The notes beneath the pieces are model-generated. The model worked only from the letters and a program-made list of their open reading frames with translations. It was not told the origin of the DNA and searched no databases. A program made the translations under genes and the position numbers. A stretch of DNA of 64,000 nt from a virus: positions 1,220 to 65,219 of the IMG/VR virus record IMGVR_UViG_3300037483_000286; one strand, given 5' to 3'. This document shows, piece after piece, positions 3,086 through 61,826 of the stretch (its first letter is position 1; every line of letters starts with the position of its first letter).

Positions 3086-3122
3086 TGTACTAGCGCGTGC
3101 AATGCGCGCTATCTGAGTCCCG

Positions 3123-3174
3123 CCCCGCTGCTTCAGCTATACCGCACATTCGGGAAGCGTTAGAAGCAGCGGGG
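3123..3174 (+). other. 12-bp inverted repeat / stem-loop between SSB and nuclease genes
   Basis: CCCCGCTGCTTC (3123-3134) pairs with GAAGCAGCGGGG (3163-3174). Confidence 0.7.
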
Positions 3175-3208
3175 AGATGGGCAGGTTGATACTGCTCAGG
3201 GGAAATTC

Positions 3209-6076: not shown

Positions 6077-6613
6077 ATGAGCAAGTTCGAAAACATGGGT
6101 AAAGAAGAGCTGCGCGCCGCTTGCAAAGCTGCCGCGATCAAAGGCTGGGGCAAGATGAATAACACGCAGATGCGTGCTGCCCTGAACGCAGACTACGTGG
6201 AATACCCCACCGAGTCCGACGCCGAACTGGACGTCGCGCAGAACCCGGACGCACCCGAACACCAGGCAGATGCGCCAGTCGAAGTCGTGCCGCCCGCTGC
6301 GCTGGAAACCCCGGAAGTGAAGGCGCTCAGTGCGCTGACTCCTCCCGCTGCGCCTGTGGTTACTGCCGCTCCTGCCAACACTGGCAAGAAGATCCAAAAG
6401 GATCGTGCTGAACAGAACGGCGTGAAACGCCCGTCGGAAGGCACGATCTGCGCGCACATCTGGAACGAACTGGACGTACTGCGGGCCGCGACAAGCGCCA
6501 CCCCTTCGTTCAAGGACTTGAAGGCGCTGCAGGACAAGCACAGCTGGCAGCGCAACACGGCAGTGACGCAGTATCAGCGCTGGAAGGAATTCAACGACCT
6601 GATGGTTCGTTGA
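6077..6613 (+). CDS. paralog 1: Rho-N/SAP-like N-terminus plus conserved C-terminal helical domain
   Basis: start moved to ATG 6077 after AGGAG; KEELRAACKAAAIKGWGKMNNTQMRAAL; C-terminal EQNGVKRP...W..LD...W...TAVTQYQRWK. Confidence 0.75.
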   Translation: MSKFENMGKEELRAACKAAAIKGWGKMNNTQMRAALNADYVEYPTESDAELDVAQNPDAPEHQADAPVEVVPPAALETPEVKALSALTPPAAPVVTAAPANTGKKIQKDRAEQNGVKRPSEGTICAHIWNELDVLRAATSATPSFKDLKALQDKHSWQRNTAVTQYQRWKEFNDLMVR

Positions 6614-6638
6614 ATTCTAACGAAGCAGGCTGTATAGT
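6610..6638 (+). promoter_or_regulatory. sigma70 promoter TTGAAT-17-TATAGT with its -10 in the loop of a 12-bp palindrome
   Basis: hexamers at 6610-6615 and 6633-6638; CGAAGCAGGCTG (6621-6632) pairs with CAGCCTGCTTCG (6641-6652). Confidence 0.7.
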
Positions 6639-6748
6639 TGCAGCCTGCTTCGGGTCTAGCAGAGAGCGGCCCGGCATCGCAGATAGCGAACGCACGGAAG
6701 CATTCGGGCGCGTTGTCCTGCCGCTCTCTAGTAGATCATGGAGTCGCT

Positions 6749-7486
6749 ATGTATATCAGTATCAATCGGAAGCTCTGCAAGTTCCTGCACAAACATCCTG
6801 ACTTCAAGGTTGTCTGTAACTTGGACTTCATTGCCCAGGCGCATGACCACACGGATGTGCTGCCGCTTACGGACGGAAGCAACCTGATTGCAGGCTGGAC
6901 TGATATGGAACTGTCAATGCTTTACCGCAACGTGACAGGGTCGCAGCACGTACCGCACATTGGCACTTCTCTGCGTGCTATGATCGCTGAATATGCGGAG
7001 CGCTTTCCTGTCACTGATTGTTTTCCAGGCGAAGTGGAACTGCAGGCGCAGTATGTAGAAGAGCGCCTTGCTAAAGCCTCCGAAGACAACGAGCCTGATG
7101 ATTATATGTATGTCAAGGGTTCTAAAATACCCGCAATCAAGTCCTCCCTTTGGGGTAGGACAGTGTGCGCGCTACTACCCCCGGACGAAGCTGCCCGCAT
7201 AGTACAGGAGCGCATTACAGCGCAGGCAAAGCGCTCCGCAGCGCTAACCCATGCGCTAGCAGCGGCCCCGCTCCCAAGCGCTCCTACGCAGCCAAAACCC
7301 GTTCGTCAAGCTGGCGCGCCACGCTCCGGAGTCTGCAAGGCTATCTGGGACGCATTGGACTTGGATCTGAAAATGACAGGCGAGATCCCTCCGCGAACCC
7401 GCATGAAAGAACTGATGTTGAAAAACGGCTGGCACACGAGCACAGCCAGCACTCAATACAGCGCCTGGAAAAAGAGCAAAGTTTAA
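6749..7486 (+). CDS. paralog 2: hypothetical protein with the same C-terminal domain
   Basis: start moved to ATG 6749 (GGAG RBS); C-terminal PRSGVCKAIWDALD...GWHTSTASTQYSAWKK. Confidence 0.75.
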   Translation: MYISINRKLCKFLHKHPDFKVVCNLDFIAQAHDHTDVLPLTDGSNLIAGWTDMELSMLYRNVTGSQHVPHIGTSLRAMIAEYAERFPVTDCFPGEVELQAQYVEERLAKASEDNEPDDYMYVKGSKIPAIKSSLWGRTVCALLPPDEAARIVQERITAQAKRSAALTHALAAAPLPSAPTQPKPVRQAGAPRSGVCKAIWDALDLDLKMTGEIPPRTRMKELMLKNGWHTSTASTQYSAWKKSKV

Positions 7487-8411: not shown

Positions 8412-9206
8412 ATGGACTATCCCTTCAACGAACAACCAATCGAGAAGCGGACAAATATGTTCGCTAACAAGCACGAAAATCTCGACGTGCAATCCATTTT
8501 CTACACGATACAAGGTGAGGGCCCATTCTGCGGAACTCCTGCTGTATTCATTCGGCTTGCAGGCTGTAACCTGCAATGCCCCGCATGCGATACGGATTAC
8601 ACATCGCAGCGGCGCTGGATATCAACAGACGATATTGTCACACAAGTCCAACATGGACATATGATGCGAAACCTTTCTCTCATCTCAGAGTTTCCATTTG
8701 AAGAATGTTTGGCGTATTACAAAGGACTTGTGGTCATTACAGGCGGCGAACCGTTCCGACAGGAGATCGATCTTCTTGTTCTAAAACTTCAGCAGCGCTT
8801 AGGATGCTATGTGCAAGTCGAAACGAACGGCACACTGCCACCCCCTAGCATCAGCACACTCAACACAAACGTGAACGAACGACGCGGACTATACATCGTT
8901 GTCAGTCCCAAAACAGGCAGAGTCGCGCGCCTCACTGCGGAGTCCGCCTGCGCCTACAAGTACGTTATGAATGCAGACAGCGTGGACTGGAAAGACGGAC
9001 TGCCTATGCACGTCCTTGATCACAAGTTGGGAACACTCAGCGTGGCACGTCCACCGGAAGGCTACAAAGGCCTGGTTTATCTGCAGCCGCAGGATGATCG
9101 TGATAAGGAAAAGAACCAGCGCAACCTCGATGCATGCGTGGAATCTTGCATGAGGCACGGGTACATACTACAGTTGCAAGTACACAAGCTACTTGGCATG
9201 GAGTGA
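8412..9206 (+). CDS. queE: 7-carboxy-7-deazaguanine synthase (radical SAM)
   Basis: SIFYTIQGEG, FIRLAGCNLQCPACDT (CxxxCxxC), ITGGEP, VETNGT, YLQP, LQLQVHK; start at ATG 8412 with GGAG RBS. Confidence 0.95.
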   Translation: MDYPFNEQPIEKRTNMFANKHENLDVQSIFYTIQGEGPFCGTPAVFIRLAGCNLQCPACDTDYTSQRRWISTDDIVTQVQHGHMMRNLSLISEFPFEECLAYYKGLVVITGGEPFRQEIDLLVLKLQQRLGCYVQVETNGTLPPPSISTLNTNVNERRGLYIVVSPKTGRVARLTAESACAYKYVMNADSVDWKDGLPMHVLDHKLGTLSVARPPEGYKGLVYLQPQDDRDKEKNQRNLDACVESCMRHGYILQLQVHKLLGME

Positions 9207-27443: not shown

Positions 27444-27890
27444 TCAGTTTTTTAGGTCGTCCTCCCGCACAGCGAAGCGGAACAAAGCAGCTTTCGCAGC
27501 CTGTTCCTGAATGTCCATGTACAAGTCGGGAAGATGGCTGAAGAGTTTCAGCGCATTATCACGAGAGAAGGGAAGCGGCTGCCGATCCTTGTCCGTGACA
27601 TTTTCCCACCCAAGGATAACAGTGTCAACGACTGCCTGTTTCGTGATGTCCCGAAGTGTCGCGGCATCCAATGCATCGTTCTGAATCGCGCGCCGATGCT
27701 TCTTGGAAAGGATTTCAATGCGCTTGTTGAAAGCGTCGTTAGATCCGCCAGCTCGCGCCACGCGAATCATAATGGACGGGCGCTGGCCTGTGGCAGGATC
27801 CGCAGGCAGATGCTTGTTCTGGCCGTAGTCGAGCAGGATTCCTTCCCTCTCGAGCTTCGGATCCGTTTCGAACTGGTCGAATAGACTCAT
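27444..27890 (-). CDS. tail assembly chaperone (gpG-like)
   Basis: start moved to ATG 27890 (AAGGTGG RBS); lies between the major tail and tape measure genes; ILGWENV. Confidence 0.85.
   Translation of the reverse strand: MSLFDQFETDPKLEREGILLDYGQNKHLPADPATGQRPSIMIRVARAGGSNDAFNKRIEILSKKHRRAIQNDALDAATLRDITKQAVVDTVILGWENVTDKDRQPLPFSRDNALKLFSHLPDLYMDIQEQAAKAALFRFAVREDDLKN
27447..27453 (-). promoter_or_regulatory. programmed -1 ribosomal frameshift site A AAA AAC
   Basis: CTA AAA AAC TGA at the chaperone end; -1 slip reads LKKLTEVLLYYLEQGP into 27082-27432. Confidence 0.85.
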
Positions 27891-27919
27891 GAGCCACCTT
27901 GAAAGTAGTGTTTGATAGA

Positions 27920-27943
27920 CGCAAGGGCACAAATGCCCTTGCG
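27920..27943 (-). terminator. 10-bp hairpin after the major tail gene
   Basis: CGCAAGGGCA / TGCCCTTGCG with 4-nt loop; weak U-tract. Confidence 0.55.
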
Positions 27944-27956
27944 CCACATACTACGT

Positions 27957-29474
27957 TCAGATGGCAGTAGTCGGCAAGTACGGAAAACTTTGAAACAGCA
28001 GAGTATGCCCGAAGCTGGACTCCGCTGCATTCGTTTCCAGTGGCAATTGAATTGCCTGGTCTTGCTCGACTGCGAGCCGTCCATCACCCAGCGACAGGAG
28101 CGGTATGTCGATGATGATCGCTTTCTGGTCCTTTGCCAGGATGATATCCAGCGTGATATCTGCATTGTTCCGAACAGACTGCACGGCGTCGATGCTGGCG
28201 AAGTACGCAGTGATATTCCCGCCAACTTCAAACGTGCCTGCGCTCGTATCGAATGCGCCCAGAACGCCGATCGCCTTGTTCGGCGTGACGTTGTTGTTGA
28301 CCGATAGCGTGAGCTGCGTGGCGAACGCGAACAACGGTAGCACATCCGTGTCATCCGTTACGACAGCCAGCTTGATTCGTGCAAAGTCCGAGCTGGTGTT
28401 GTACGCATCTTCGGACACGAGTGTCGGACGAGTGCCTGCTTTGACACCCGTCAGTCCATTGCGCTGCTCATTGTCGCAAGCAATAAACGTCAGGTCGATC
28501 GTAACCTTGTCCGCTTGCTCCACGTTCACAGTCAACTCGTTCGCGACTGCGCCAACGAGATACTCCGACATCGTACCGTTCACATCCACGCCAAGTGTGC
28601 GCTCCACGTTGTACGTACGGCGAATGATATCCGCAGGCAGCGGCTCATTCTTGATCACGCTTCCGTAGTAAATGCGGATCGTCTTACCGGTACCAGCTTC
28701 CGCTTGAGGAGTCCAAGTGGTCTTGTCGAACTCAATGAACGTAGCAGTGATACGCTTGATACGCGCATATCCCTGATTGTTCACGAACACATTTCCCGCT
28801 ACTTCGTCACCGATGTACACCCACTCACCTGGGATCAACGGCAGTGTGGTCATCGTCACTGCAGAACTCACAAGCTGAGGAAGCGTGCCGTTCATCGCGA
28901 TACTGACATCGGCTGAAGCAAACTGATGCCCCACAAGCTCCACCTTGGCAGCAGCAGGAGGCACAGCCTCATCCGCCAACGAGTCACTCACACTGATTGC
29001 GATCCCAGTGCTAATTGCATTCGAAGTTTTCAATCCATTGTTCGCAGTGACACCAAAACCAGAGGCGTAAACTAAGTCGCCTGGGATGATTGTCGTTGGA
29101 AGACCTGCAGCGGCAGTATAGTCATCGTTGGCAGCGAGAATGCCTGTGATAACCACAGCCGCTGTGTTCAATGCCTGCGTCGTCGCCTTCTCCCTCGCAT
29201 TCGCGAAGAAGAAACCTTGCAGTACACGAGTACTGTTATTGAACGTCAGGTCTTGGTTGAATCCGCCGCTCGCGTCCAAGTCCGTGATCACGCCTTTCTT
29301 GCGCTGACGCGACGGGTTGATCGGGTTGCGCGCGATAGTGGCAAGCTGCCCTCCGAAGTCCGAATACGAGTTCGGCTCCAGTGGATACCACACAGGAGAA
29401 CCAGGCAGGACTTTCAGTGAAGCCTCTTCGGCGAACCGGAGTCCTGTGATATTGCTATCGACTTTGTCAGCCAT
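27957..29474 (-). CDS. major tail (tube) protein
   Basis: 505 aa; W..LEPNSYSDFGG.L.T.ARNPIN.SRQRKKG..TDLDASGG; synteny. Confidence 0.88.
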   Translation of the reverse strand: MADKVDSNITGLRFAEEASLKVLPGSPVWYPLEPNSYSDFGGQLATIARNPINPSRQRKKGVITDLDASGGFNQDLTFNNSTRVLQGFFFANAREKATTQALNTAAVVITGILAANDDYTAAAGLPTTIIPGDLVYASGFGVTANNGLKTSNAISTGIAISVSDSLADEAVPPAAAKVELVGHQFASADVSIAMNGTLPQLVSSAVTMTTLPLIPGEWVYIGDEVAGNVFVNNQGYARIKRITATFIEFDKTTWTPQAEAGTGKTIRIYYGSVIKNEPLPADIIRRTYNVERTLGVDVNGTMSEYLVGAVANELTVNVEQADKVTIDLTFIACDNEQRNGLTGVKAGTRPTLVSEDAYNTSSDFARIKLAVVTDDTDVLPLFAFATQLTLSVNNNVTPNKAIGVLGAFDTSAGTFEVGGNITAYFASIDAVQSVRNNADITLDIILAKDQKAIIIDIPLLSLGDGRLAVEQDQAIQLPLETNAAESSFGHTLLFQSFPYLPTTAI

Positions 29475-30262: not shown

Positions 30263-30759
30263 CAGCGTATCACTCTACGTGAAGAGTCCACGAGCCCACG
30301 AAGCAAAACATCAGCCGCAGGATAGGGCTTGAAAAGAAAGAGGGAGAACGCTTCAGAATACTTTGTCCTTTCTTCCAGCGGACCTACCTTCTCCATCTTT
30401 TCGATAACCCTGCCACCTGTTGCATCCGTTGTCGGGTCAGGCGCGAGTACTGCTGTCAATGCACGCAATGCGTACTCCGCGACAGCCTGCTTCATTTTCA
30501 CAGGCATCTGCGGGTCCGTTTCGTCACAGTAAACAACAGGAAATGGAAGCGCTTGATCCTCATTATACGGACTGCCTAAGAACTTGAAGCGGTTCGCCAA
30601 GTAGTCAGTCGCTCGCACGATCGCGGGTTGCTTCACGGTAGCGGTATCACCCGTCCATGCAACAATCCCGCGATCTGCGAAGTAAGTGTCAGCAAACGCA
30701 ACGTCGATTAACGCGTTGGCATTTGCTAATCCTGTACCGTCTTCGACTACGAATGCCAT
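30262..30759 (-). CDS. head-tail adaptor (DnaT-like family)
   Basis: FVVEDGTGL.NANA.I....AD.YF..RG, ATDYL...F.G, QAL.FP. Confidence 0.85.
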   Translation of the reverse strand: MAFVVEDGTGLANANALIDVAFADTYFADRGIVAWTGDTATVKQPAIVRATDYLANRFKFLGSPYNEDQALPFPVVYCDETDPQMPVKMKQAVAEYALRALTAVLAPDPTTDATGGRVIEKMEKVGPLEERTKYSEAFSLFLFKPYPAADVLLRGLVDSSRRVIR

Positions 30760-32553
30760 CTACGTCAACTCCAAGAAATGCACTGAGGACGAGAAAGCCG
30801 TGTAATCGATATAGTTCGGTATTTCACTCCACCACAAAAATCCATGTCTCACCTGCGGACGCGCGATAATCTTAGAGCTGGTACGCATGACCGCATCTAC
30901 TGTCCATGTGTTTCCTCCGTCCGCTGTAATCATCCGCACAAGCTGCCATGATCCCGGACCAACACTGCCACCCAGGTTTCGAGCGCAGTAGACAATATCA
31001 GTATCCGCCTCATCGAAGCACGCACCACCAAAATAATCGGAGGTACCTGCGAAGAATGCAGGACCACTGCTCGCGATCGCTTGGCGCGTGAACAAGCCGG
31101 TTGCTGTATTGTAGACGTAACGGTAGTACGTACCTGCATTCTCATCCGCAAATTCGCTCGCAAGAATCTGTGGCACGCCAACACGTCCTAGTTCGTACAT
31201 GCGCGTGGTAGTCGGTGCTGTAACGTCCACAGCCTTGTGCTCTTCAGCCTCAGTAATAGGCAAGCCTGTGTCAGTGAGAACATTGCCGAAGACTGTACCT
31301 TCGGAGTCAATGACGTCACCTGTCGAAAGGTTGACACGGAAATAGTAGATATCATGGTTCGCTCCGACAAGCGGATGCGCGTAAGCGAAGCAGCGGATAT
31401 GAACGCCGTCAGGATCTATGACGCTAAAGACGTAGGTGTTCTGCGCGAGGATGCGTTCCGTAGACCATGTCACACCATCGTCATCGCTATAACGCATTAC
31501 CCAATCACCGGCGCTCGATGATCCAATGCGGTACATCATCCAGATACGCGCCGTCGCGGCAAGCCGATGCACCTGCATATAAGTGGCAGTGTTGCTCGTG
31601 ACTAACGTCCGCACTGAACCCCAGTTATCAAGATCGGCAGTTGCCGACAGACGCGAACGAACGTACAGATCCAGCGAGTGCGTGGCAAACGCAGGCATGA
31701 TCAAGCCCGTATTGGTTGCAACGAGCGCAGGGACATTGTGGTCATCTGATTCATCAGTCGCGAGCGTCGTCGTCACGCCGACCAATGTAGTGCGGCTCAT
31801 GCGCGTGATGTAGTACTGTCCACCTAATCCAGCAGTTCCGACGTAGAGCCAATTAGCTGTCGCGATGATGTTCGGCGCGACCCACTGACCCTGGATCGCA
31901 TTGCCGATCGCATTGACAAGCCCGTATGCACGAGGACGACGAAAACGTCGAGGAGTAACTGAATACGTCGTATACCAACGTGGAACAAGCGCCTGTGTCG
32001 TAGTAACTGGAAAGGTGAAGCGCACCGTCCAAGTCACTCCACCATCCTCGCTCGACTCAAACGTGACAACGCCTGCTACCCTACGAAGGCAGATCAACGA
32101 CAATATAGATTCAGGCAGTACATACGTTGGCACTGCAGTGAGCGAAGCTGTATTCACACCGTAAAACAGAGCGCCAGCTGTATTGACCTGTCCAATATAA
32201 TCACCGCCGCCATACGCTACGTCACCTGGAACAGCCGCATCAAAAGTCAGTACAATCGCGCCATCACCGCCAGCACCCTTACTGGCCTCGATCCAGCCAT
32301 CGGCACCTGATGGAAGTATGGTTGGAGCAGTATAGCCACGCGCACCTTGGCTCGTTCCAGCCGACGTCGCTGCATAGACCTCGTTGCCTTCGTTAGTCAG
32401 ATTGATTAACGTGCGAAACGTCACTGCCGTAGCAGTAGGAGGAGAAATAGCAGCGGCCGCAGCAGCGTCAATTCTCCGCTGCCGATTGCGCTTCCTTGAA
32501 TAGTAAAGCGCAACCTGCATACGATGACTTAACGGTGCGAACGTGCGCGCCAT
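30760..32553 (-). CDS. BNR-repeat (sialidase-like beta-propeller) protein, probably virion-associated
   Basis: Asp-boxes SEDGGVTW, SDDDGVTW, TADGGNTW and DDHNVP (BNR_4-like). Confidence 0.75.
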   Translation of the reverse strand: MARTFAPLSHRMQVALYYSRKRNRQRRIDAAAAAAISPPTATAVTFRTLINLTNEGNEVYAATSAGTSQGARGYTAPTILPSGADGWIEASKGAGGDGAIVLTFDAAVPGDVAYGGGDYIGQVNTAGALFYGVNTASLTAVPTYVLPESILSLICLRRVAGVVTFESSEDGGVTWTVRFTFPVTTTQALVPRWYTTYSVTPRRFRRPRAYGLVNAIGNAIQGQWVAPNIIATANWLYVGTAGLGGQYYITRMSRTTLVGVTTTLATDESDDHNVPALVATNTGLIMPAFATHSLDLYVRSRLSATADLDNWGSVRTLVTSNTATYMQVHRLAATARIWMMYRIGSSSAGDWVMRYSDDDGVTWSTERILAQNTYVFSVIDPDGVHIRCFAYAHPLVGANHDIYYFRVNLSTGDVIDSEGTVFGNVLTDTGLPITEAEEHKAVDVTAPTTTRMYELGRVGVPQILASEFADENAGTYYRYVYNTATGLFTRQAIASSGPAFFAGTSDYFGGACFDEADTDIVYCARNLGGSVGPGSWQLVRMITADGGNTWTVDAVMRTSSKIIARPQVRHGFLWWSEIPNYIDYTAFSSSVHFLELT

Positions 32554-44075: not shown

Positions 44076-44962
44076 GACAGGGTCTTACTTGCGATGTTCG
44101 ACGGTACGCTCTCAGCTCCTGCGCTGTTGTAAGCTACGACCGCGAAGTACCACTTGCCCGACGTCAAGTTCTCTATCACGTATGTTGAAATCGCAGCATT
44201 ACTGACAGTGATCGTCTGTGTTAGTGCGGTCGCGCTTGCTCCGTAGATGATGCGGTAGCCTGCCAAGTTGGTGAGCGACGAGCCGTCCGTGTTCTGCGTT
44301 GGAGGTGTCCACGACAACGTCACCTTCGCTGTTTGGATCGCAGGATGGACTGTGAATATTCCAAAAGGTTGGCTGACAGTTACCTCACCATCGAAGACAG
44401 CGATGGATAACTGGGATCGCTGGCCTACATCCGTAGGGCCAGGAGTCCCTGCGAGCTTTCCAGTGGCCGTATCGAAAGTGGCCCAGGGCGGTCGGTTTCC
44501 CACTATGAACTGCAACGGATCGAGGTCAGCATCCATTACAGTAGGAGTGTACTGATACGGAACTCCGACCGTGGCATTGACAATCGGTACACTAGTAAAC
44601 ACAGGCGCACGATTCGCGACGACAGGAGGCGTGACTGTGATAGTGAACTTCTTCGTGCCAACTGCCGTGTTCGGTCCATCATCCACGAATATCTGAATGT
44701 CCTTATACACCTTAGCGTCCGCAGCTCCAGGCTTGCCGACGATCCTGCCAGTGGAGTACGAGAAGGACAGCCAGCGAGGTCTATTCTTTATGACGAACTT
44801 GAGCGTCGATGCTCCGTCGTCCACGACAGTTGGAGTGAAGCTATAAGTCTGCCCGACCGTGACCGTCGTGCTCGCTGGACCAGTGATCTTCGGCGGAGTG
44901 TTGGCAGCTAATGCGGGCAGCGCCAGCATTAGCAAAGCCAAAGTCAGATGTTGAGCTTTCAT
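44072..44962 (-). CDS. secreted protein: two putative Ig (He_PIG/cadherin-like) domains plus Fn3 domain
   Basis: signal peptide MKAQHLTLALLMLALPALA; repeats P.W..F...TG...G.P; VTLSWTPPTQNTDGS.L..LAGYRI.YG. Confidence 0.85.
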   Translation of the reverse strand: MKAQHLTLALLMLALPALAANTPPKITGPASTTVTVGQTYSFTPTVVDDGASTLKFVIKNRPRWLSFSYSTGRIVGKPGAADAKVYKDIQIFVDDGPNTAVGTKKFTITVTPPVVANRAPVFTSVPIVNATVGVPYQYTPTVMDADLDPLQFIVGNRPPWATFDTATGKLAGTPGPTDVGQRSQLSIAVFDGEVTVSQPFGIFTVHPAIQTAKVTLSWTPPTQNTDGSSLTNLAGYRIIYGASATALTQTITVSNAAISTYVIENLTSGKWYFAVVAYNSAGAESVPSNIASKTLS

Positions 44963-45012
44963 AACATGAAAGCATAACACACACGTACAATACTACAAGT
45001 ACAATCTACAAT

Positions 45013-45270
45013 CTAACAGCAAACTGACTTTCGAGCATTATCATGAGCAACATTCAGAAACAACGCATGCGCGAACTCATCGTCCCGCTTGCTGAAATCC
45101 ACCGTCTCCATGGAGTTCATCCAGTCCCTGCGCAACTGCAACGCGGACTCGGCAGTAGGTTGATAATCAACAGCCGGCAAGCTGGATCCATACTGGATCT
45201 GTCCCGCAGCGACAGCCCACTGTGATTCCGTCCATCCTAGGAATCTAAACGATTCTTGGTCCCGCAGCAT
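45013..45270 (-). CDS. hypothetical protein
   Basis: start moved to ATG 45270 (GGAG RBS). Confidence 0.55.
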   Translation of the reverse strand: MLRDQESFRFLGWTESQWAVAAGQIQYGSSLPAVDYQPTAESALQLRRDWMNSMETVDFSKRDDEFAHALFLNVAHDNARKSVCC

Positions 45271-45478
45271 AGATACTCCAATTGTCAGGTAAAGTGGCGT
45301 CAATCAAAGTAGCGAGGTTCTCCACCGCTTCCTCGACCGTGTTTCCAGTCTCGAACTGGCAATCCTGATCCCAATCGTTCAGGACTGCAGCAAACTTGTA
45401 GAGTATAGGATTATCCTGTTCCTCTACCAGTACGTTGATCTCCCCGCTTGACAGCGGGATTAGATAACGCTTGCGCAT
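45245..45478 (-). CDS. hypothetical acidic protein
   Basis: ATG directly after the upstream TGA; ORF-track extension discarded. Confidence 0.55.
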   Translation of the reverse strand: MRKRYLIPLSSGEINVLVEEQDNPILYKFAAVLNDWDQDCQFETGNTVEEAVENLATLIDATLPDNWSIYAAGPRIV

Positions 45479-45479
45479 A

Positions 45480-45650
45480 TCAACCAGCTTGCTTGCGAAG
45501 CAACATCGGCAAGCCGTTGGACAGGCCCTTACGGCCCAATGCGACCAGCGCCTTGTTGGCAGCGTACTCACTGCGCAGCTCATTGGCGCGGCGTCGCGAG
45601 TCAGCGCTGTTATAAGGATCGTGGCCTTCATAACTTTCAGTGAGTTTCAT
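45480..45650 (-). CDS. 56-aa hypothetical protein (missing from the ORF track)
   Basis: GGAG RBS; MKLTESYEGHDPYNSADSRRRANELRSEY...QAG. Confidence 0.6.
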   Translation of the reverse strand: MKLTESYEGHDPYNSADSRRRANELRSEYAANKALVALGRKGLSNGLPMLLRKQAG

Positions 45651-53611: not shown

Positions 53612-54012
53612 ATGACTTTCTCCTGCGCAGGCAAGTACGCTCGCGCTAACCCCATGACAACGTACCCTTCGCGAACTCCTTGGTGCTCGCCCAGAATATA
53701 CGTTACCCGGTGCGAGCTTTCCAGTCCTGTATAGCGCCCACCACTAGCCTTGCTTGCACGCATAGCGCTTTCATAATCTCCATCTAATGAAAGCGGGCAA
53801 TCAGGACAAGGATCCATCTCGTCAGGCGCTGTACGAATTCTACCGTGGCCTTTACAAGTGCCACAAGGGTCAAATTCTTTTAATACAAGGATATCGTCCA
53901 CTTTGAAGTCACGATCATTCAGCCGCACTTCAAATGTCTTCTCCCTGTTGCGGACAGCACGGAAGTATTCGGGCCAGGTTTTAAGGTTGTGCTTTTTCAT
54001 CATACGCTCCAA
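53608..54012 (-). CDS. DUF3850 (ASCH/PUA-like) protein with a CxxC insertion
   Basis: H.LKTWPEYF.AV....KTFEVRLNDRDF.V.D.L.L.EFD...VTYIL...GYVVMGL. Confidence 0.85.
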   Translation of the reverse strand: MERMMKKHNLKTWPEYFRAVRNREKTFEVRLNDRDFKVDDILVLKEFDPCGTCKGHGRIRTAPDEMDPCPDCPLSLDGDYESAMRASKASGGRYTGLESSHRVTYILGEHQGVREGYVVMGLARAYLPAQEKVI

Positions 54013-55013
54013 GGAGCAACTCCAGCTGGCACATTTTTAATCTTTTTCTTTCGTCGGCAACCACAACTGATAGTTGGATCAGTTTTCCTTCGTAAGGATG
54101 TGCCAGCAACGTCCCACACAGTGCCACAATCGCATCGGCACTCCCAATAGGTACATCTTTTATTAGTGTGGTTAACAGACTCGCGAAGCACAACTAAGTG
54201 ACCAAATCTCTGCCCTTTAATATCCTTCTTAACAGCTAAAACGCGCATTTCAGCCCCTAAACATCCACAGCTCTTTGTGTGCCCGCTCATATATTGATCT
54301 GCCGGAATAGTCGTCTGATTCCCGCACGCACATGAGCAATTTATCATTCTGCCCCTAGTTTTCTTATTGATGCCAGCTTCACTAAGGTAAGTAAGATAAC
54401 CAGCTGAAGATCCTTTTAAATCATGCTTCCTACTATCAATCGCTTCCTTACGCAAGCAACCACATGAAAGTGTATGTTTATAACGCAGGTTACCTGACGT
54501 ACATAAAGATTCATTACCACAGTCGCATTTACAGATCCACAGCGGATAGTTTGTTGGATCGCGCTTATCAGATAAACCAATGACCAACAAACGACCGAAC
54601 TTTTGTCCTGTCAAGTCAGTGCGTGGACCGGGGCGCTTACCCTTTTGCGCCTCTGCCATATTACGTCGCTTCTGGCATCCACAGTGTGTACTCACGCCTA
54701 GTTTAAGTCGCCATCCCTTGACGATTTTTATTCGAGAACAACTACATCGGCATTCATAAGTCTGTTCGTTATAACCACCCGGTTGAAACAAACGAAGAAC
54801 TCTCCACTCTCCAATCTGTTGTCCTGTAATATCCATTGCTGCCTTCTTAGCAGCTCTCGGAGCATACCACTGCTTAGACTCTTCAAGGTCATACAGATCA
54901 AAATGACCATTTCTTCCCTTTGGTTTTGGACCATCTTTTTTAAGCAGGTTCCACAACGCACTGGGTTTTAATCCGAGTGCTGCTGCAAGTTGCTTACGAG
55001 TTACAAGATTCAT
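54000..55013 (-). CDS. HTH protein with four tandem Cys-rich (CxCxCG...SCGC) domains
   Basis: N-terminal TRKQLAAALGL wHTH; four D(I/L).G..FG.L.V...W.C.C.CG...SCGC repeats; AT-richer DNA. Confidence 0.8.
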   Translation of the reverse strand: MNLVTRKQLAAALGLKPSALWNLLKKDGPKPKGRNGHFDLYDLEESKQWYAPRAAKKAAMDITGQQIGEWRVLRLFQPGGYNEQTYECRCSCSRIKIVKGWRLKLGVSTHCGCQKRRNMAEAQKGKRPGPRTDLTGQKFGRLLVIGLSDKRDPTNYPLWICKCDCGNESLCTSGNLRYKHTLSCGCLRKEAIDSRKHDLKGSSAGYLTYLSEAGINKKTRGRMINCSCACGNQTTIPADQYMSGHTKSCGCLGAEMRVLAVKKDIKGQRFGHLVVLRESVNHTNKRCTYWECRCDCGTVWDVAGTSLRRKTDPTISCGCRRKKKIKNVPAGVAPWSV

Positions 55014-55285: not shown

Positions 55286-55634
55286 GATACACCCTGTCCT
55301 TGTAATCAGTGTCGCCCTTAGGCTTCACATACTCGCGCAGGACAACACCTTCGTCAACCTTATGATCCTCTGCCATACACCCATGCGTCTCAATCCAACG
55401 GATCTTCTGCCTCTTGCGTTCCCAAAACTTCTTCACGTTCGCGAAGTGTCCAGGCGGCATGTCCCTGCATGCAGCGCCTGAAGCGATCACAGAGATCCCT
55501 TGGTCGTCCCAGCAGTCCAGAGCACACTCACCGCGCCACATGCCTTCCTTGACAAGGTATGCCCAGCGGTCCATGCGTGCGCAGATGACTGGCAGGGACA
55601 ATCCGATTCGCATGCGTCGGATGAACTGTTTCAT
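55194..55634 (-). CDS. hypothetical protein
   Basis: 146 aa, ATGA-coupled. Confidence 0.6.
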   Translation of the reverse strand: MKQFIRRMRIGLSLPVICARMDRWAYLVKEGMWRGECALDCWDDQGISVIASGAACRDMPPGHFANVKKFWERKRQKIRWIETHGCMAEDHKVDEGVVLREYVKPKGDTDYKDRVYLEIRLDNGDGIHFPKEAFTTAPDGVLEYRY

Positions 55635-55819
55635 AGCTTCACATACCTTCCGTCACAGACTAAGCGTAACCACAGGTGCGGAACCGCGTTCGGGTGCTCG
55701 TAGTATACGCGTCCGCAGTGCCTACACAAGACGTCGCCGTTTGCCCGATACCATTCAGGGATAGGCACTAGACGAGCAGCACGTTCGCACATTTCACGTT
55801 CGAATTCTCGGAGGAACAT
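55631..55819 (-). CDS. small Zn-ribbon protein
   Basis: LCRHCG...H...LVCDG. Confidence 0.6.
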   Translation of the reverse strand: MFLREFEREMCERAARLVPIPEWYRANGDVLCRHCGRVYYEHPNAVPHLWLRLVCDGRYVKL

Positions 55820-56022
55820 TAGACAGTGTAGAGCAGCTTTTTAGAAGCTCCCTCCATGCCAGGCTGTTTCAGTTCCAATGCAACCTCCTCGGCGTCCAAC
55901 TGCATCGCGTCGCTTTCATCCGGGCTAAACTCAGCTACTCCATTGATCAGTTCGCCAGTCATGAAGTGTCCCTGAGCATTTACGATCGCCCACACTTCAA
56001 GTGGCTTACGTTGACGGCTCAT
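55819..56022 (-). CDS. hypothetical protein
   Basis: 67 aa, coupled at both ends. Confidence 0.55.
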   Translation of the reverse strand: MSRQRKPLEVWAIVNAQGHFMTGELINGVAEFSPDESDAMQLDAEEVALELKQPGMEGASKKLLYTV

Positions 56023-56810
56023 TTCACCTGCCTATGCAACGACACCTTAGAACCGTACTCCGCACCTGCACGATGCGCGTGAGCCTTGCGCAAGTCAATC
56101 TTCTGTGTATGTCCGTCACTCAACTTGACGTTAAGGGCCTCCAAGTAACCCTTGTTCGCTTCCTCTTCCTTCTTGTAGAGGTTCGCAACGACGAGCGCAG
56201 TGCTGGCACCCTGCAGAAGTGCAGGCGACTCCACGTCCGCAGCCTCAGGCTGAATACCTTTCTGTTCGGACTCCTGCTGGATGGCGTGACAGCGCATGCG
56301 TATCTTCGCAGCCGCACCCTGAGCGAAGGCGCGATAATCACCGTAGCGGCCTCCAATATCACGCTGGTACTTTTGAGCCTCCTTGTTCACAGCCTCCACA
56401 ACGAAACGCGCCATCTCGTGCGCTGTCACAACATTGGAATGACGTCCAATGAAGTTATGCATCGCTTTCTGGGTAGGGCCCGCATTTCCGCCCATCGTCT
56501 GATAGTAGTAATGGCAGAAATACATCCGACCGATAGCTGCAGCAATCTGGATGGCCCAAGGCTTACCCAGGAAAGGCTGCGCCAGGCGTTCCCGTGCTTC
56601 TTCTGCAGCTTCGCCTTCACCCACCTGAGAAAGGCTAAGATTGTACTTCGCTAGCGTGGAGTGGACCATGCGAAGCGCATTATCACGTTCGCCCTCTGTC
56701 GCACCTGCATCCTGGGCAAGGCGCATCATCTTGCGAACGCGGCGAAGGATCTTGGCTTGAATCTCGTCTTTGCTCATCTCTACTTGCTCCTGTAGTCGAT
56801 GAGGCAACAT
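56019..56810 (-). CDS. DUF2786 domain protein
   Basis: KIL.RVRKMMRLA....ATEGER.NA.......L.KYNL. Confidence 0.85.
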   Translation of the reverse strand: MLPHRLQEQVEMSKDEIQAKILRRVRKMMRLAQDAGATEGERDNALRMVHSTLAKYNLSLSQVGEGEAAEEARERLAQPFLGKPWAIQIAAAIGRMYFCHYYYQTMGGNAGPTQKAMHNFIGRHSNVVTAHEMARFVVEAVNKEAQKYQRDIGGRYGDYRAFAQGAAAKIRMRCHAIQQESEQKGIQPEAADVESPALLQGASTALVVANLYKKEEEANKGYLEALNVKLSDGHTQKIDLRKAHAHRAGAEYGSKVSLHRQVK

Positions 56811-56986
56811 TACCCGCGACGTTTGAACAAGTCAACACGAATCAGGAAAATAAGCAGGACGAGCCAGAAGACAGCTAGCCAGGGTCCATATTCTGTTCCA
56901 AGCCAATAGAATGCAGTGAAAGGGCCGAGGTAGGCCCAGATCACAATGATCAGGAGTTGAAGGCCTGATGCTAATTTATTATTCAT
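56810..56986 (-). CDS. small two-TM membrane protein
   Basis: start moved to ATG 56986; two hydrophobic helices. Confidence 0.6.
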   Translation of the reverse strand: MNNKLASGLQLLIIVIWAYLGPFTAFYWLGTEYGPWLAVFWLVLLIFLIRVDLFKRRG

Positions 56987-56990
56987 GTGA

Positions 56991-57646
56991 TAAAACGGCC
57001 CGGTGCGTGATGCGCAGGTACGTGGCGGAGGGAGCGCCTGCGGACAAAACGACACCGGGCCATAGTGAAGCGGCCTGCAGCACGTCGGGGACTAACCGCC
57101 GACATGGTTCATAACGCCAGGCCGAGATGTGCGCAAGCCGCTTCACTATAGCAAGCCCATTGAGAGGGGTGATTCTCTAGCACAGTGCGAACCACCGAAC
57201 GTATGTGCATACGTCCTATACTGTATATGTCTTGGATCGTTCCGAAGAACGACGTTAAGCTCAGTCAGTCGACCCCTCTCAATGGACTCGAAAAATCAAG
57301 GAACTCTCGACAGGCGCCGACTCATTGCAGGCGCTTTAATCGGATTCTTACCGAACCTGTCCACGGCCTTTGTCCGTGGTTCCTGCGCGTCGCTAGGACC
57401 AGCCCAGCTTCGCATCCTGATGCAGTCCACTTCGGCGCAAGCGCCTATCGCTTCCTACATCGCATCAATCAACCTCCGACTAGCAGCGAAGGTGCGACTC
57501 CGCTTGCCTAAACCCTCGCTGGTCGCACCCAACGTCGTCTAGGGCTTCCGCTCATTAAAGCGGTTTGGACCCGAGGCGGTCAGCTGGGCGTTTCCGACCG
57601 ACCGGGTCCTCTGTGATGCGGCGATATTAACCCCTCGCCGCAGGAT
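56991..57646 (-). ncRNA. candidate large structured ncRNA (about 650 nt)
   Basis: promoter upstream; at least 11 stems up to 14 bp; UUCG and CUUG tetraloops on the minus strand; no credible same-strand ORF. Confidence 0.6.
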
Positions 57647-57652
57647 GGACAA

Positions 57653-57681
57653 AGCATAGCGCGTGGAGCTGCATATCACAA
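57653..57681 (-). promoter_or_regulatory. sigma70 promoter TTGTGA-17-TATGCT
   Basis: hexamers at 57676-57681 and 57653-57658; points into the structured region. Confidence 0.6.
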
Positions 57682-57891
57682 GGGGCCGTAACACAAATCC
57701 ACCCACTCACGATCCTCTTCTGCAGTCATCAGCATTTCCCCTTCGGGAACTGCATTAACGATGCCCATGAACTTCGCACCGTCCCCACGTTGCTTACAGA
57801 ACTCAACATGGACTTGGATTTCTGCCTCAGTTGCAAAAGGGCCAACATATCCGTCAGCGAGATCCTGGAAATGTGCATAAATCATTTGCAT
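57676..57891 (-). CDS. hypothetical protein
   Basis: GGAG RBS; 71 aa. Confidence 0.65.
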   Translation of the reverse strand: MQMIYAHFQDLADGYVGPFATEAEIQVHVEFCKQRGDGAKFMGIVNAVPEGEMLMTAEEDREWVDLCYGPL

Positions 57892-58079
57892 GCTCCATTC
57901 AAGTAGCCAACAACGTCGAACGCGTGCTTGTGCGTTACGCCAGTCTTACCCTGCTTCGCATCGCGGTTCCAGAAAGCCAGGATCTCGCGGTCGCTGTAAC
58001 CCTTATCACTAAGGTAGCTGTAATCCGAGACAGTGAAGTTCGGGTGGCGGATCACTCGGCTATGCATCTGGGGCGACAT
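57882..58079 (-). CDS. hypothetical protein, first gene after cassette D
   Basis: start moved to ATG 58079 (TAAGGAG). Confidence 0.7.
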   Translation of the reverse strand: MSPQMHSRVIRHPNFTVSDYSYLSDKGYSDREILAFWNRDAKQGKTGVTHKHAFDVVGYLNGACK

Positions 58080-58104
58080 CTGTATCTCCTTACTTAGTGA
58101 AGCT

Positions 58105-58157
58105 AGTATCACTGAACCCGCTGCACAAGGCAAGTATTAGTTCACAGTTTTAGCAGC
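58105..58157 (-). promoter_or_regulatory. early promoter cassette D
   Basis: GCTGCTAAAACTGTGAACTAA-TAC-TTGCCT-17-GATACT. Confidence 0.7.
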
Positions 58158-58545
58158 GCCCGATATAACAGAATAACCACAGGCTGCGACTGGGCATACT
58201 CCCGGAAGAACGTCCAGCTGCAGGGATACCCTTACTCCCTACAAATGCTGTTCTACTGGGGATACTACGTAATTTATTGCTATTATTAGTAGTACGTCAA
58301 CTAATTCGTAAAATGACTAGAACTGTTGCTCCATATAGGGTCTATATACATAAATTAGTAAATTAGTACATTATTACAGTAGTTACCCTGGAGCTTGGGG
58401 GTAGTAGTAGTCCCAACAAAATATTTCGTAGAGACTACTCGGGGAGGGCTAGGGGCTGTTAAGCGTTAAAGCGCTAATTTGCTAACTGCAAAGTATCCCT
58501 GGCAAAAATATTTTAATTGTTGTAATACTACCCCTCCCACAATAA
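58158..58545. other. AT-rich divergent intergenic region, candidate replication origin
   Basis: ORF-free; short direct and inverted repeats (GGGATAC, GGGGTAGTA, AAAATATTT, AAATTAGT); two genes upstream of the primase. Confidence 0.45.
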
Positions 58546-59106
58546 ATGAGTATCATGCTAATGGAAATCCCACCCGAACCTCCTATCCTACCTGAAGGTG
58601 AATCGCATTCACTTCCTGCTTCATTCTTTGCAGATACTGCCACTCCTCCACCCATCAACTACGAAACGCCTCATCCCGCTTACATGCAGCTCATCGACAC
58701 TGTGTATAAAAAGGACAAAGGTCTGATCTTACATTGGTGGCCCCTGATATACGGTAAGCCAAGTGAGTTCGTAACGGACAAGCCGATCGCCTGCCATCCT
58801 TCCCACGTCCTTGCGCACGCTAAGGGAATGAAAGCGCAAGGCTACATGGCTCCTGTTCCACTTAACCCTGTGGTTAATCTGGATCCGTTCGCGGAAGCGC
58901 ATTCGGTTTGGATGCGCGAGTGCAATCTGCGTAAGAAATGGGTTGAAGAAAAGAAAGAAGTCTGGAAACGACGCAGGCAGGAGCGGGCTGATTGGCTGGA
59001 GAGCATGCGACTGATAGAGAAGCAGTGGGACATTTACGTGGAGGAGGCGCGTAAAGAATTTAAGGATGCTGAGGCTTACCCTGTTCCAATACGTCCTGTG
59101 AAATAA
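58546..59106 (+). CDS. hypothetical protein
   Basis: 186 aa; Pro-rich N-terminus, charged Trp-rich helix. Confidence 0.6.
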   Translation: MSIMLMEIPPEPPILPEGESHSLPASFFADTATPPPINYETPHPAYMQLIDTVYKKDKGLILHWWPLIYGKPSEFVTDKPIACHPSHVLAHAKGMKAQGYMAPVPLNPVVNLDPFAEAHSVWMRECNLRKKWVEEKKEVWKRRRQERADWLESMRLIEKQWDIYVEEARKEFKDAEAYPVPIRPVK

Positions 59107-59181
59107 TGCTGTTAAGTGATCACTTGCGATTGTAAAGCGGGCGCATATAAAATGCTTGCTCGTCCTAAGCAGTCGCATACA

Positions 59182-59418
59182 ATGACAAAATCAGACGCAC
59201 AAGCCAAGTTCGACGCTGAGTACATATCCGGGTCGGAGATAAGACGACGATTGAAGGTCGCGTCCTGTACGCTTACGTTAGCGCGCCAGCGAGGCGTATT
59301 GCCGGAACCCATACAAGTGGGCGAAGCAATGTATGTGTGGGTTAGGAGTGAGGTGGAGCCGTTACTTATCGCATGGAGCGCCGCTTTGAAATTACGTCGC
59401 CGCGAGTTGCACGCATGA
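59182..59418 (+). CDS. AlpA/excisionase-like HTH protein
   Basis: YIS..EI.RRL.V...TL...R..G.LP.PI......VW.R.EV; start uncertain. Confidence 0.65.
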   Translation: MTKSDAQAKFDAEYISGSEIRRRLKVASCTLTLARQRGVLPEPIQVGEAMYVWVRSEVEPLLIAWSAALKLRRRELHA

Positions 59419-61826
59419 CCTCGGCGGCATGGAGCCGCTTGCCAGCTGAACTTCGGGGACGGGCACAATGGGTCATCGCTGGACCTGATAAAAAGCCTCT
59501 CTCGGTTAATCAAGCTGGGCAGTTCTACGGCGCAAGTAGCGTCGATCCTTCACACTGGCTGTCCTTCGACGCCGCTGCCTACTATGCGGAGCGGGCAGGA
59601 CTTGGCATCGGCTTCATGCTCAGTGCGGACGATCCCTTCGCCTGCATCGACTTCGACATCTGCGACGAGGCCTCGCAGAAGCGTAAAGGCCAACCGATAG
59701 ACGAATCCAAGTGGACGACACAAGCACAGTGGGAATGGTTCTGGTTTGTTGCACAGAACTTCGACAGTTATACCGAAGTGTCTATGTGGGGCAAGGGCCT
59801 ACATATATGGGTGCGCGGCAAGCTGCCTGGAGTGGGCAAGGGCGTTCACAGTGGATCCATCGAACTGTATTGCCAGGAACGATATATCATATGCACAGGG
59901 AATGTGTTAATCGACAAGGAAATACGTGATCGCCAGGATTGGCTACAGGACATGGCGAAGCGTTTGGATGGTGATTCAGGCAAGGACAGTACATTCCAAT
60001 TAGTTGAACGCAATGCGGTGATGGAGGATCGCGCGATCTATGACATGGCATCGCGTGCGGACAACCGATTCAACTTCAACGAGCTGTGGGCAGGACGTTG
60101 GCATCAGTTCGGGCATCCTAGCCAGTCTGAAGCAGACATGGCGCTCATGTCGATGCTGACATTCTATACGAAGTCTAACGAGCAATGCCGACGCCTGTTC
60201 CGAATGAGCGCGCTAGGACAGCGGGAAAAAGCACAGAAGAATGATCGCTATTTGAATTTCACACTGTCCGCGATACGTGCAAGGGAACAACGCGAACAGA
60301 TCATCGATGTGTCGGGTATAGAGAAGGCTGCTAGACAGCTCGAGCAGTTGCAGCGGGAAAAGGCGAACGCTGTAGGGACTCCTATGCACGTTCCCGAGCT
60401 CGCCGTGGGGCAAGCCCAGCTAGCCAGTGTGTCCGTTGCGCTCTCCGTAGCAGCTCCTGTAGCGCCCAGCGTTGCGAAAGCTGCTGAGGACGGACTGCCT
60501 TGGCCCCCAGGCTTCGCGGGCGCCATTGCGCAATTTATCTTTAGCAGTGCGCCTAGGCCTGTTAAGGAGGTCGCGATCGTTGGAGCCTTAGGACTGCTCG
60601 CAGGGATATGCGGAAAGACTTGGTATATTCCAGGGAGCGGACTCAACCTGTATGTGATATTGGTTGCAAGGTCTGCAATCGGCAAGGAGGCTATGCATTC
60701 CGGCATCAGTGCGCTGGTAAACGCTGCTACTATGTGTGAACCCTCTACACATCAATTCGTGAACTTTACAGACTTCGCCTCAGGTCCTGCGCTGGTAAAG
60801 GCTTGTGCGACGCAAAGTAGCTTCGTACAGGTCGCAGGCGAATGGGGCCAGAAGCTGCGACGATTATCTAACGACACTGGGAATGACACTGCAATGGCCA
60901 CACTCCGGGCCAAAATGACTGACCTCTATCAAAAGTCGGGCCCACAGTCCATCGTAGGAGGCATCAACTATTCGCAAGCGGAAGGAAACATCGCAAGCAT
61001 TAGTGGAGTCGCTTATTCAATGATAGGCGAGACAACGCCGAAGACATTCTACAGCTCGTTGACAGAGACAATGATGGAGGATGGGTTCCTATCACGTTTC
61101 ACTATTGTGGAATACACAGGAACACGACCTCCGCTTAATCCCGATCCGCAGCCTGTACCTAATAAGTGGCTCGCAGACGCGGTGGGCGCGTTAGCCAAAC
61201 AGGCGCTGGGAATCAACCGCATCCCTGTAGCTTGTGCTCCTGAAGCATCTGTCCATGTGCAAGCATTCGAGAAGGAATGTGACGCGGAGATCAATAGCAC
61301 GACAGACGAATCCTGGCGTCAAATGTGGAATCGTGCTTCGTTGAAGGTAATGCGCGTCGCTGCGCTCCTAGCAGTAGCGGACCACGCGACCCATCCTTGT
61401 GTGCTCGAACAGCATGTAGTGTGGGCATTAGACCTTATACGCCGCGACATAGCGATCATGAAGGCACGCTTGGAAGCAGGTGAAATCGGAAGCGACGACA
61501 CTTCGCGTGAACGCAAGGCGCTGGCTGTCATTAAGGACTACTTTCAACGCGACGTTGCAGACGGATATGAAGTGCCTAAAGAGATGCGAGCTCGAGGAAT
61601 CATTCCGCACAAGATTATTCAAATACGTTGCCAGCGAACGCCTGCATTCGTAGCGCATAGAGCAGGCAGCTCCGAAGCAGTTAAGCAAGTCATGAAAACA
61701 CTGGTGGAGAACGGGCATCTTATGGACGTGGCAAAGGACCAGATGGTGAAAGAATTTGATTTCCATGGCAAGTGCTATCGCCTGCTGAACTTGCCGGACT
61801 TCGATAAGGAACGCAAGCGCGCATAA
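59415..61826 (+). CDS. primase-polymerase (NrS-1-like) with DUF3987-type ATPase/helicase region
   Basis: QWV, GIGF.L...DPF.CID.D, YTE.S..GKGLH, IE.Y...RYI..TG, SQSEADMAL; ARSAIGKE; start at ATG 59415. Confidence 0.85.
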   Translation: MTSAAWSRLPAELRGRAQWVIAGPDKKPLSVNQAGQFYGASSVDPSHWLSFDAAAYYAERAGLGIGFMLSADDPFACIDFDICDEASQKRKGQPIDESKWTTQAQWEWFWFVAQNFDSYTEVSMWGKGLHIWVRGKLPGVGKGVHSGSIELYCQERYIICTGNVLIDKEIRDRQDWLQDMAKRLDGDSGKDSTFQLVERNAVMEDRAIYDMASRADNRFNFNELWAGRWHQFGHPSQSEADMALMSMLTFYTKSNEQCRRLFRMSALGQREKAQKNDRYLNFTLSAIRAREQREQIIDVSGIEKAARQLEQLQREKANAVGTPMHVPELAVGQAQLASVSVALSVAAPVAPSVAKAAEDGLPWPPGFAGAIAQFIFSSAPRPVKEVAIVGALGLLAGICGKTWYIPGSGLNLYVILVARSAIGKEAMHSGISALVNAATMCEPSTHQFVNFTDFASGPALVKACATQSSFVQVAGEWGQKLRRLSNDTGNDTAMATLRAKMTDLYQKSGPQSIVGGINYSQAEGNIASISGVAYSMIGETTPKTFYSSLTETMMEDGFLSRFTIVEYTGTRPPLNPDPQPVPNKWLADAVGALAKQALGINRIPVACAPEASVHVQAFEKECDAEINSTTDESWRQMWNRASLKVMRVAALLAVADHATHPCVLEQHVVWALDLIRRDIAIMKARLEAGEIGSDDTSRERKALAVIKDYFQRDVADGYEVPKEMRARGIIPHKIIQIRCQRTPAFVAHRAGSSEAVKQVMKTLVENGHLMDVAKDQMVKEFDFHGKCYRLLNLPDFDKERKRA

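Follow-up and report, generated by a model that had tools for sequence, protein, structure and literature searches.

Does the stretch of about 690 nt without a credible ORF in the leftward operon of an uncultured phage encode a structured RNA and, if so, of what kind? The region was examined in a window of 64,000 nt (positions 1,220 to 65,219 of IMG/VR record IMGVR_UViG_3300037483_000286), which is nearly all of a 65,731-bp virus record with direct terminal repeats, estimated to be 100% complete and assembled from a sediment metagenome. A sequence-only reading had proposed an early phage non-coding RNA of about 650 nt with its own promoter, belonging to an unrecognised family. Our analysis indicates that this is almost certainly a real RNA-level element, conserved in a small group of uncultured Queuovirinae-like phages and matching no known RNA family, although its expression rests on inference and its function can only be proposed tentatively.

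An ORF-free, strongly folded gap in the leftward operon

The primase-helicase of the phage is about 52% identical to those of Pseudomonas phages JG054, NP1 and PaMx25 (Queuovirinae, Nipunavirus). A divergent control region at 58134-58545 separates rightward replication genes from a long leftward (minus-strand) operon of small genes, in which an 83-aa ORF and a 71-aa ORF are followed by the ORF-free gap (57675-56987), then by a 58-aa membrane ORF and a DUF2786/DUF7168 gene. No minus-strand ORF over 55 aa lies between the 71-aa ORF (stop at 57676) and the AUG at 56986, and all six frames are broken or implausible. A 137-aa ORF on the plus strand has no Pfam family, no homologue among 5.8 billion proteins and no counterpart in a relative (L022, described below).

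The 662-nt stretch folds at -298.6 kcal/mol on the minus strand, against -251 +/- 8 for dinucleotide shuffles (z -6.1), and at -270.6 kcal/mol on the plus strand (z -6.5). In a GC-corrected scan of all 300-nt windows over the 64 kb, 57001-57300 on the minus strand is the joint top outlier (z -3.7), and 56901 and 57401 are also in the top 12. Further outliers (z -2.9 to -3.7) lie at 6401-6800 and 27701-28200 on both strands, and at 30601-30900 and 44901-45600 on the minus strand; the one at 6501 ties with the element studied here.

Homologues of the element in uncultured phages

Searches of GenBank phages (blastn, word size 11) with the window element found no match, and neither did later searches with the elements of two relatives (L028 and L026). 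Eleven distant IMG/VR relatives found through the primase showed no similarity, and in JG054 the 380-nt gap at the analogous place is neither similar nor unusually structured (z -1.3). Exact-word scans returned only chance hits, for a 20-mer in the JGI metagenomes (L014) and for an 18-mer of the 3' loop in IMG/VR (L033-L036, a coding region of unrelated AT-rich phages), and two further scans found nothing. The first lead came from aligning contigs of two other metagenomes to the region, where patches were 89-98% identical and the flanks became unrelated just upstream of the proposed -35.

We then used the neighbouring DUF2786 protein, whose homologues at 60-72% identity led to further contigs. 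Searching these with nhmmer found the element in the contigs L018, L022 (with L023-25), L028 (with L029), L020 and later L041, in every case on the same strand as the operon. A 25-nt pattern from the most conserved block found two further IMG/VR phages, L026 and L027, and nothing in two scans of 185,579 bacterial and archaeal species genomes. In total, homologues exist in seven distinct uncultured phage sequences besides the window. In a DUF2786 tree all carriers fall in one of the two major clades, whereas DUF2786-bearing relatives with a different early-region architecture lack the element. One relative without the core, L038, has two ORF-free gaps of 780 and 455 nt in its leftward early operon (1543-2324 and 2903-3357), which could hold a different RNA. 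Interestingly, the order of the RNA and the DUF2786 gene is inverted in the window (56019-57681), where the RNA precedes the gene, relative to L018, L020, L022, L028 and L041, where it follows it. This points to a local rearrangement of the early operon.

Covariation supports a conserved RNA structure

The region divides into the following parts, all on the minus strand:

57653..57681 (-): predicted sigma-70-type promoter, with -35 TTGTGA (57681-57676, overlapping the TGA stop of the upstream 71-aa ORF), a 17-nt spacer and -10 TATGCT (57658-57653); predicted start at about 57646-57648.
57387..57646 (-): proximal part of the 5' domain, with helix P1 (57646-42 with 57418-14), hairpin P2 (57641-35/57624-18), a long hairpin (57609-594/57583-567), variable hairpins (57566-57462), P7 (57461-50/57430-19, capped by GGCGCUUGCGCC) and P8 (57413-08/57392-87, with the conserved loop GGCUGGUCCU).
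57300..57383 (-): invariant core, with outer helix 57383-79/57304-00, hairpin H1 57378-74/57366-62 (loop ACAAAGG), closing helix 57361-57/57313-09, H2 57354-51/57343-40 (loop UAAGAAU), junction UUAAA 57339-35 and H3 57334-30/57318-14 (loop UGCAAUGAGUC).
57157..57285 (-): middle domain, in which a 13-bp helix, CCAUUGAGAGGGG with CCCCUCUCAAUGG (57285-73/57169-57), encloses window-specific hairpins, including c(UUCG)g at 57243-46.
57064..57146 (-): Y-shaped 3' domain, with outer stem 57146-26/57083-64, arm A 57125-17/57107-099 (loop CGUUAUGAA, 57116-08) and arm B 57098-96/57088-86 (loop UUAGUCC, 57095-89).
56990..57061 (-): compound stem GGCCCGGUG/CACCGGGCC (57061-53/57005-56997) followed by GUUUUAU, a possible weak terminator or simply the end of the structured region.
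56810..56986 (-): 58-aa two-helix membrane ORF immediately after the RNA.

The best conserved part is the 86-nt core (57383-57300), in which the outer helix encloses hairpin H1 and a three-way junction made of the closing helix, H2 (UCGG/CCGA, 7-nt loop UARRANU), a 5-nt junction UNAAA and H3 (5-6 bp, with a 10-11-nt loop ending GARY). Over seven distinct sequences, 94.7% of cells form standard pairs, against 34-48% when the partner is slid by 1-3 columns; 9 of 19 pairs change on both sides, and no shuffle out of 500 reaches any observed measure. H1, the closing helix and the outer helix differ in almost every sequence yet stay paired, whereas about 28 loop, junction and H2/H3 positions are invariant, including the string GGUUCGGUA..A.UCCGAU.AAAGC. 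A covariance model of the core (R1) scores 77-100 bits on exactly 8 loci and on nothing else in about 420 kb of related phage DNA, and the eleven distant primase relatives also give no hit. The window scores 89.6 bits (E about 1e-18), and there is one copy per genome.

The whole 5' domain, including the core, was folded with RNAalifold on 5 sequences, giving 96 consensus pairs. Of the cells, 96.4% are paired, against 34-42% when slid, and 34 pairs carry compensatory changes, against 15.2 +/- 2.7 in shuffles; 0 of 500 shuffles reached the observed counts. P1 ties the predicted 5' end to a site 230 nt downstream, and the predicted 5' end is therefore base-paired. The middle helix keeps pairing in L018 and L022, as AUCAAGAGGGG/CCCCUCUUGAU, through two compensatory pairs and one G-U. 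The 3' domain is shared with L018 and L022 only; it has 43 consensus pairs, 7 of them compensatory, and both arms change sequence but keep pairing, while both loops are identical. While only eight distinct sequences are known, with three for the middle and 3' domains, and the shuffle controls do not correct for phylogeny, these data indicate that the sequence is under selection for RNA secondary structure.

Most of the stems proposed by the sequence-only reading recur in the consensus structure of homologues. These are 57618-24/57635-41 (invariant), 57567-83/57594-609 (7 compensatory pairs), the 57435-45 hairpin g(CUUG)c, 57362-66/57374-78 (3 compensatory pairs), 57309-13/57357-61 (3 compensatory pairs), the middle helix 57157-69/57273-85 and the 3' domain stem 57064-83/57126-46. 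Two proposed items are not conserved: the helix 57491-98/57522-29 lies in a variable part and is only loosely matched, and the 9-bp stem 56997-57005/57053-61 followed by GUUUUAU is in the sequence but is window-specific.

The sense strand and coding potential

To determine which strand carries the structure, we examined the consensus pairs of a four-sequence alignment. Thirty-five cells are G-U on the minus strand, and only 5 would be G-U on the plus strand. Consensus folding gives 97 pairs and -96 kcal/mol for the minus strand, against 73 pairs and -70 kcal/mol for its complement. Substitutions between homologues are spread evenly over the three phases (10/14/11 and 36/32/38), whereas in the adjacent DUF2786 gene they fall 52/41/112 at codon positions 1/2/3, with the excess at third positions. 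The element is therefore an RNA-level feature of the operon's sense strand.

These results bear on a DNA-level element (protein-binding palindromes, a recombination site or a remnant of a mobile element) or a decayed gene with no RNA function. Both strands fold well, and the position of the element relative to the DUF2786 gene differs between the window and its relatives. However, the 35:5 excess of G-U over A-C in paired cells is not expected for DNA hairpins, loops and junctions as well as stems are invariant, there are no terminal repeats and no second copy, and no frame is open or conserved. We consider this explanation very unlikely.

A predicted promoter and the ends of the RNA

The window has TTGTGA, 17 nt and TATGCT; L018 and L022 have TTGCAT, 17 nt and TACTGT, and L028 has TTGCAT, 17 nt and TACGCT. 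The spacers are unrelated, and in the three relatives an A-rich tract lies upstream. Conserved hexamers with fixed spacing and free spacer sequence are what a functional promoter looks like, and a leaf-litter metagenome relative is conserved up to 57686 and unlike beyond it. The window's hexamers match only 8/12 and fall below the threshold of the consensus scan, but comparison with relatives supports the site. The -10 places the start at about 57646, the first base of P1.

The 3' boundary is uncertain, since the compound stem followed by GUUUUAU is not conserved in L018/L022 and a terminator scan finds no intrinsic terminator (a short GC-rich hairpin followed by at least 5 U in 8 nt) in 55500-59500. 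The AUG of the 58-aa membrane ORF lies 3 nt after the U-tract and has no Shine-Dalgarno. No Pfam, PHROG or PADLOC match was found for this ORF, which may be a passenger or a regulated gene, and may be translationally coupled to, or controlled by, the 3' structure of the RNA. That the RNA is transcribed early by host RNA polymerase, both from its own promoter and by read-through of the early operon, is inferred; no RNA run contains the stretch apart from one ambiguous wastewater library, and the only run labelled RNA contains two 151-nt contigs and is probably DNA.

The core is portable between genomic contexts

Intriguingly, the element is modular rather than one indivisible RNA of 650 nt. In L018 (4990-5136) and L022 (7796-7945) a 48-codon ORF for a hydrophobic peptide (MKRILSFVIW...) is inserted between the core and the middle helix. 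It has an AAGGAGG site, its substitutions fall 11/4/14 by codon position, and its last codons form the 5' strand of the middle helix. The layout resembles a type I toxin or a dual-function RNA: as in hok-like mRNAs, a hydrophobic peptide gene sits inside a long, heavily folded transcript whose 5' end is paired far downstream. However, the ORF is absent from the window, L028, L020, L026 and L027, no antisense RNA gene is evident, and the core is conserved independently of the ORF.

Two unrelated phages carry the core alone. In L026 it sits in a roughly 310-nt leader between an SSB gene and a Zn-ribbon ORF followed by RNase H; the ORF (123 aa, with a CxxC ... C motif; 8420-8791, minus strand), which no PHROG family matches, begins 120 nt after the stand-alone core. 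In L027 the core starts right after the stop codon of a 107-aa ORF downstream of a UvrD-type helicase, and is followed after 13 nt by a canonical-looking intrinsic terminator and then by convergent genes. Neither partial genome has a DUF2786 gene.

A cis-acting mRNA element is the main rival to a trans-acting RNA. In this view the core and 5' domain would form a leader or intercistronic operator (riboswitch-like, or a protein-binding site) controlling translation, termination, processing or stability of the downstream early genes, notably the small membrane proteins. In L018/L022 (and the identical core of L041) the AAGGAGG site and start codon of the 48-aa membrane ORF follow the core by about 25 nt, in the window a 58-aa membrane ORF follows the RNA, and in L026 and L028 an ORF starts 120-130 nt after the core. 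About 28 invariant bases in a junction is also typical of an aptamer. On the other hand, the downstream genes are unrelated (membrane peptide, Cys-rich 352-aa protein, DUF3850, Zn-ribbon protein), and in L027 nothing follows except a terminator and convergent genes. In the window, 330 nt of further conserved structure separate the core from the next AUG. A dedicated promoter inside an operon is unusual for a mere leader, and no alternative expression-platform pairing was identified. We regard the cis-acting role as possible but less likely. A homologue of a window protein directly follows the RNA in L028; this is a 337-aa protein (54000-55013, minus strand) made of three to four Cys-rich repeats (G.(K/Q)FG.L.V ... 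C.C.CG ... SCGC), which matches PHROG 374 'HNH endonuclease' at E 8.5e-56 and has no Pfam hit.

A replication-related transcript, forming an R-loop or primer at or near a phage origin as in the ColE1 RNA II or T4 oriF/oriG logic, was also considered. The element always lies in the replication or early module: it is 1.7 kb from the primase-helicase in the window, between SSB and RNase H in L026, and after a UvrD-type helicase in L027. The cumulative GC skew minimum is at 58-59 kb, but it coincides with the switch in gene orientation and is not independent evidence. The distance to the divergent control region varies from 0.5 to 3.5 kb among relatives, there are no iterons or AT-rich unwinding element, and the NrS-1-type primase-polymerase of the phage would not be expected to need an RNA primer. 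This role appears improbable.

Comparison with known RNAs and search for partners

No Rfam 15 family matches the element, including GOLLD, ROOL, OLE, HEARO, raiA, group I/II introns, RNase P, tmRNA, 6S, riboswitches, ribozymes and ribosomal leaders. There are 0 matches at gathering thresholds over the whole window, and at E <= 10 on 56700-57900, on the 96-nt core and on the L028 homologue only chance-level hits appear (MIR6032, snoU82P, mtPerm-5S, Sphinx_1, Giardia MRP), all far below gathering. ARAGORN detects no tRNA or tmRNA genes in the window. The complete genome has no reverse transcriptase (RVT_1), as would accompany a retron msr-msd, DGR template or group II intron, and no repeat of the region occurs elsewhere in the window. 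It likewise has no TnpB-type nuclease (Cas12f1-like_TNB), as for an OMEGA guide RNA, and no Ro (TROVE) protein, as for a Y RNA or YrlA.

The large ornate RNAs GOLLD (RF01998) and ROOL (RF03087) are, like this RNA, several hundred nucleotides long, multi-domain, often phage-borne, non-coding, of unknown function and supported by covariation. There is no sequence or structure similarity to them by cmscan even at E = 10, and the RNA studied here is not next to tRNA genes, is far rarer, and has a portable 86-nt core that occurs alone. The prohead RNA (pRNA) of phi29 would be another phage-encoded structured RNA with its own early promoter, built around a three-way junction and acting as part of a protein machine, but at 174 nt it appears confined to phi29-like protein-primed phages, where it docks on the portal. 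The phages described here are terminase-packaging relatives of Queuovirinae (Terminase_2 and Terminase_6N hits were found in the related RNA-negative loci L030, L031 and L037), and no similarity to pRNA was detected. The RNase III processing sites of the T7 early operon are also long, near-perfect intercistronic helices in an early polycistronic transcript, comparable to the 13-bp middle helix and the roughly 19-bp 3' stem in the window, but they are single 60-100-nt hairpins without invariant multi-helix junctions.

By eye, the H2 loop (UAGAAGU in four of seven sequences, UAAGAAU in the window) and the UUAAA-G junction recall helices 43/44 of the 23S rRNA GTPase-associated centre (H42-H44, the L11/L10 site). 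Both have a closing helix, a hairpin with a UAGAAG-type loop, a 5-nt UUAAA junction followed by G, a second hairpin and then the return strand. However, R1 does not find the site in E. coli 23S rRNA, a model of the E. coli site (R2) does not find the core in any of eight element-bearing loci with filters off, and H2 has 4 bp, not 8. This is a resemblance only.

A new ribozyme, self-cleaving or otherwise catalytic, was also considered, in which the invariant junction would be an active site, as with the hammerhead, twister and HDV-like ribozymes scattered through phage intergenic regions. The core is a compact junction with many invariant unpaired bases, sits in variable genomic contexts including UTRs, and is restricted to phages. 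No Rfam ribozyme model matches even at E = 10 and there is no recognisable cleavage-site motif, and we think this improbable.

No binding partner was identified. The adjacent DUF2786/DUF7168 protein (56019-56810, minus strand) has no PDB sequence relative. Its AlphaFold model is confident (pLDDT 85, pTM 0.71), with a predicted beta-alpha-beta-beta unit and long helices, but it has no Foldseek match at E <= 0.001, only weak KH-like and aIF2-alpha-like rows, and VIA-align finds only helical hairpins at Z <= 6.9. The gene also occurs in relatives that lack the RNA. The neighbours have no PADLOC or informative PHROG matches.

A proposed trans-acting binding module

Taken together, the sequence-only reading was supported in proposing an unrecognised family, a minus-strand sense, an own promoter and an RNA-structural element, but its proposed functions (scaffold, sponge or leader) remain hypotheses. 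The element consists of a 5' domain ending in the invariant core, a middle domain and a Y-shaped 3' domain. We infer that the paired 5' end and long terminal helices make the transcript stable, and perhaps allow it to be excised by RNase III, and that the invariant loop and junction bases of the core (GGUUCGGUA..A.UCCGAU.AAAGC plus the H3 loop) form a specific binding surface. The core keeps its sequence in a stand-alone RNA, in a 5' leader and in a 3' UTR, next to unrelated genes. We therefore tentatively favour a module that acts in trans early in infection as a scaffold or decoy for a host or phage factor, with the other domains as accessories, although the evidence leaves this short of an even chance and the Shine-Dalgarno site 25 nt after the core in three phages favours the cis-acting rival. 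A possible but less likely reading is that the core is an RNA ligand for a host translation, RNA-decay or defence protein, so that the phage would use RNA rather than protein for an early takeover or counter-defence step, with the 5', middle and 3' domains adding stability, processing or multimerisation.

The novelty is at the level of the RNA family, which is rare, is known only from metagenomes, and has no counterpart in Rfam, in GenBank phages or in the cellular genomes scanned, a comparison that does not extend to the roughly 10,000 unnamed candidates of the IMG/VR structured-RNA catalogue (PMC10690425). Large structured non-coding RNAs with strong covariation support are rare, and the known ones (RNase P, group I/II introns, OLE, GOLLD, ROOL, HEARO) have each opened new biology. 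This case gives a well-delimited new class with a small, highly conserved junction core, which travels between phage genomes and between UTR contexts, and this argues for a self-contained function.
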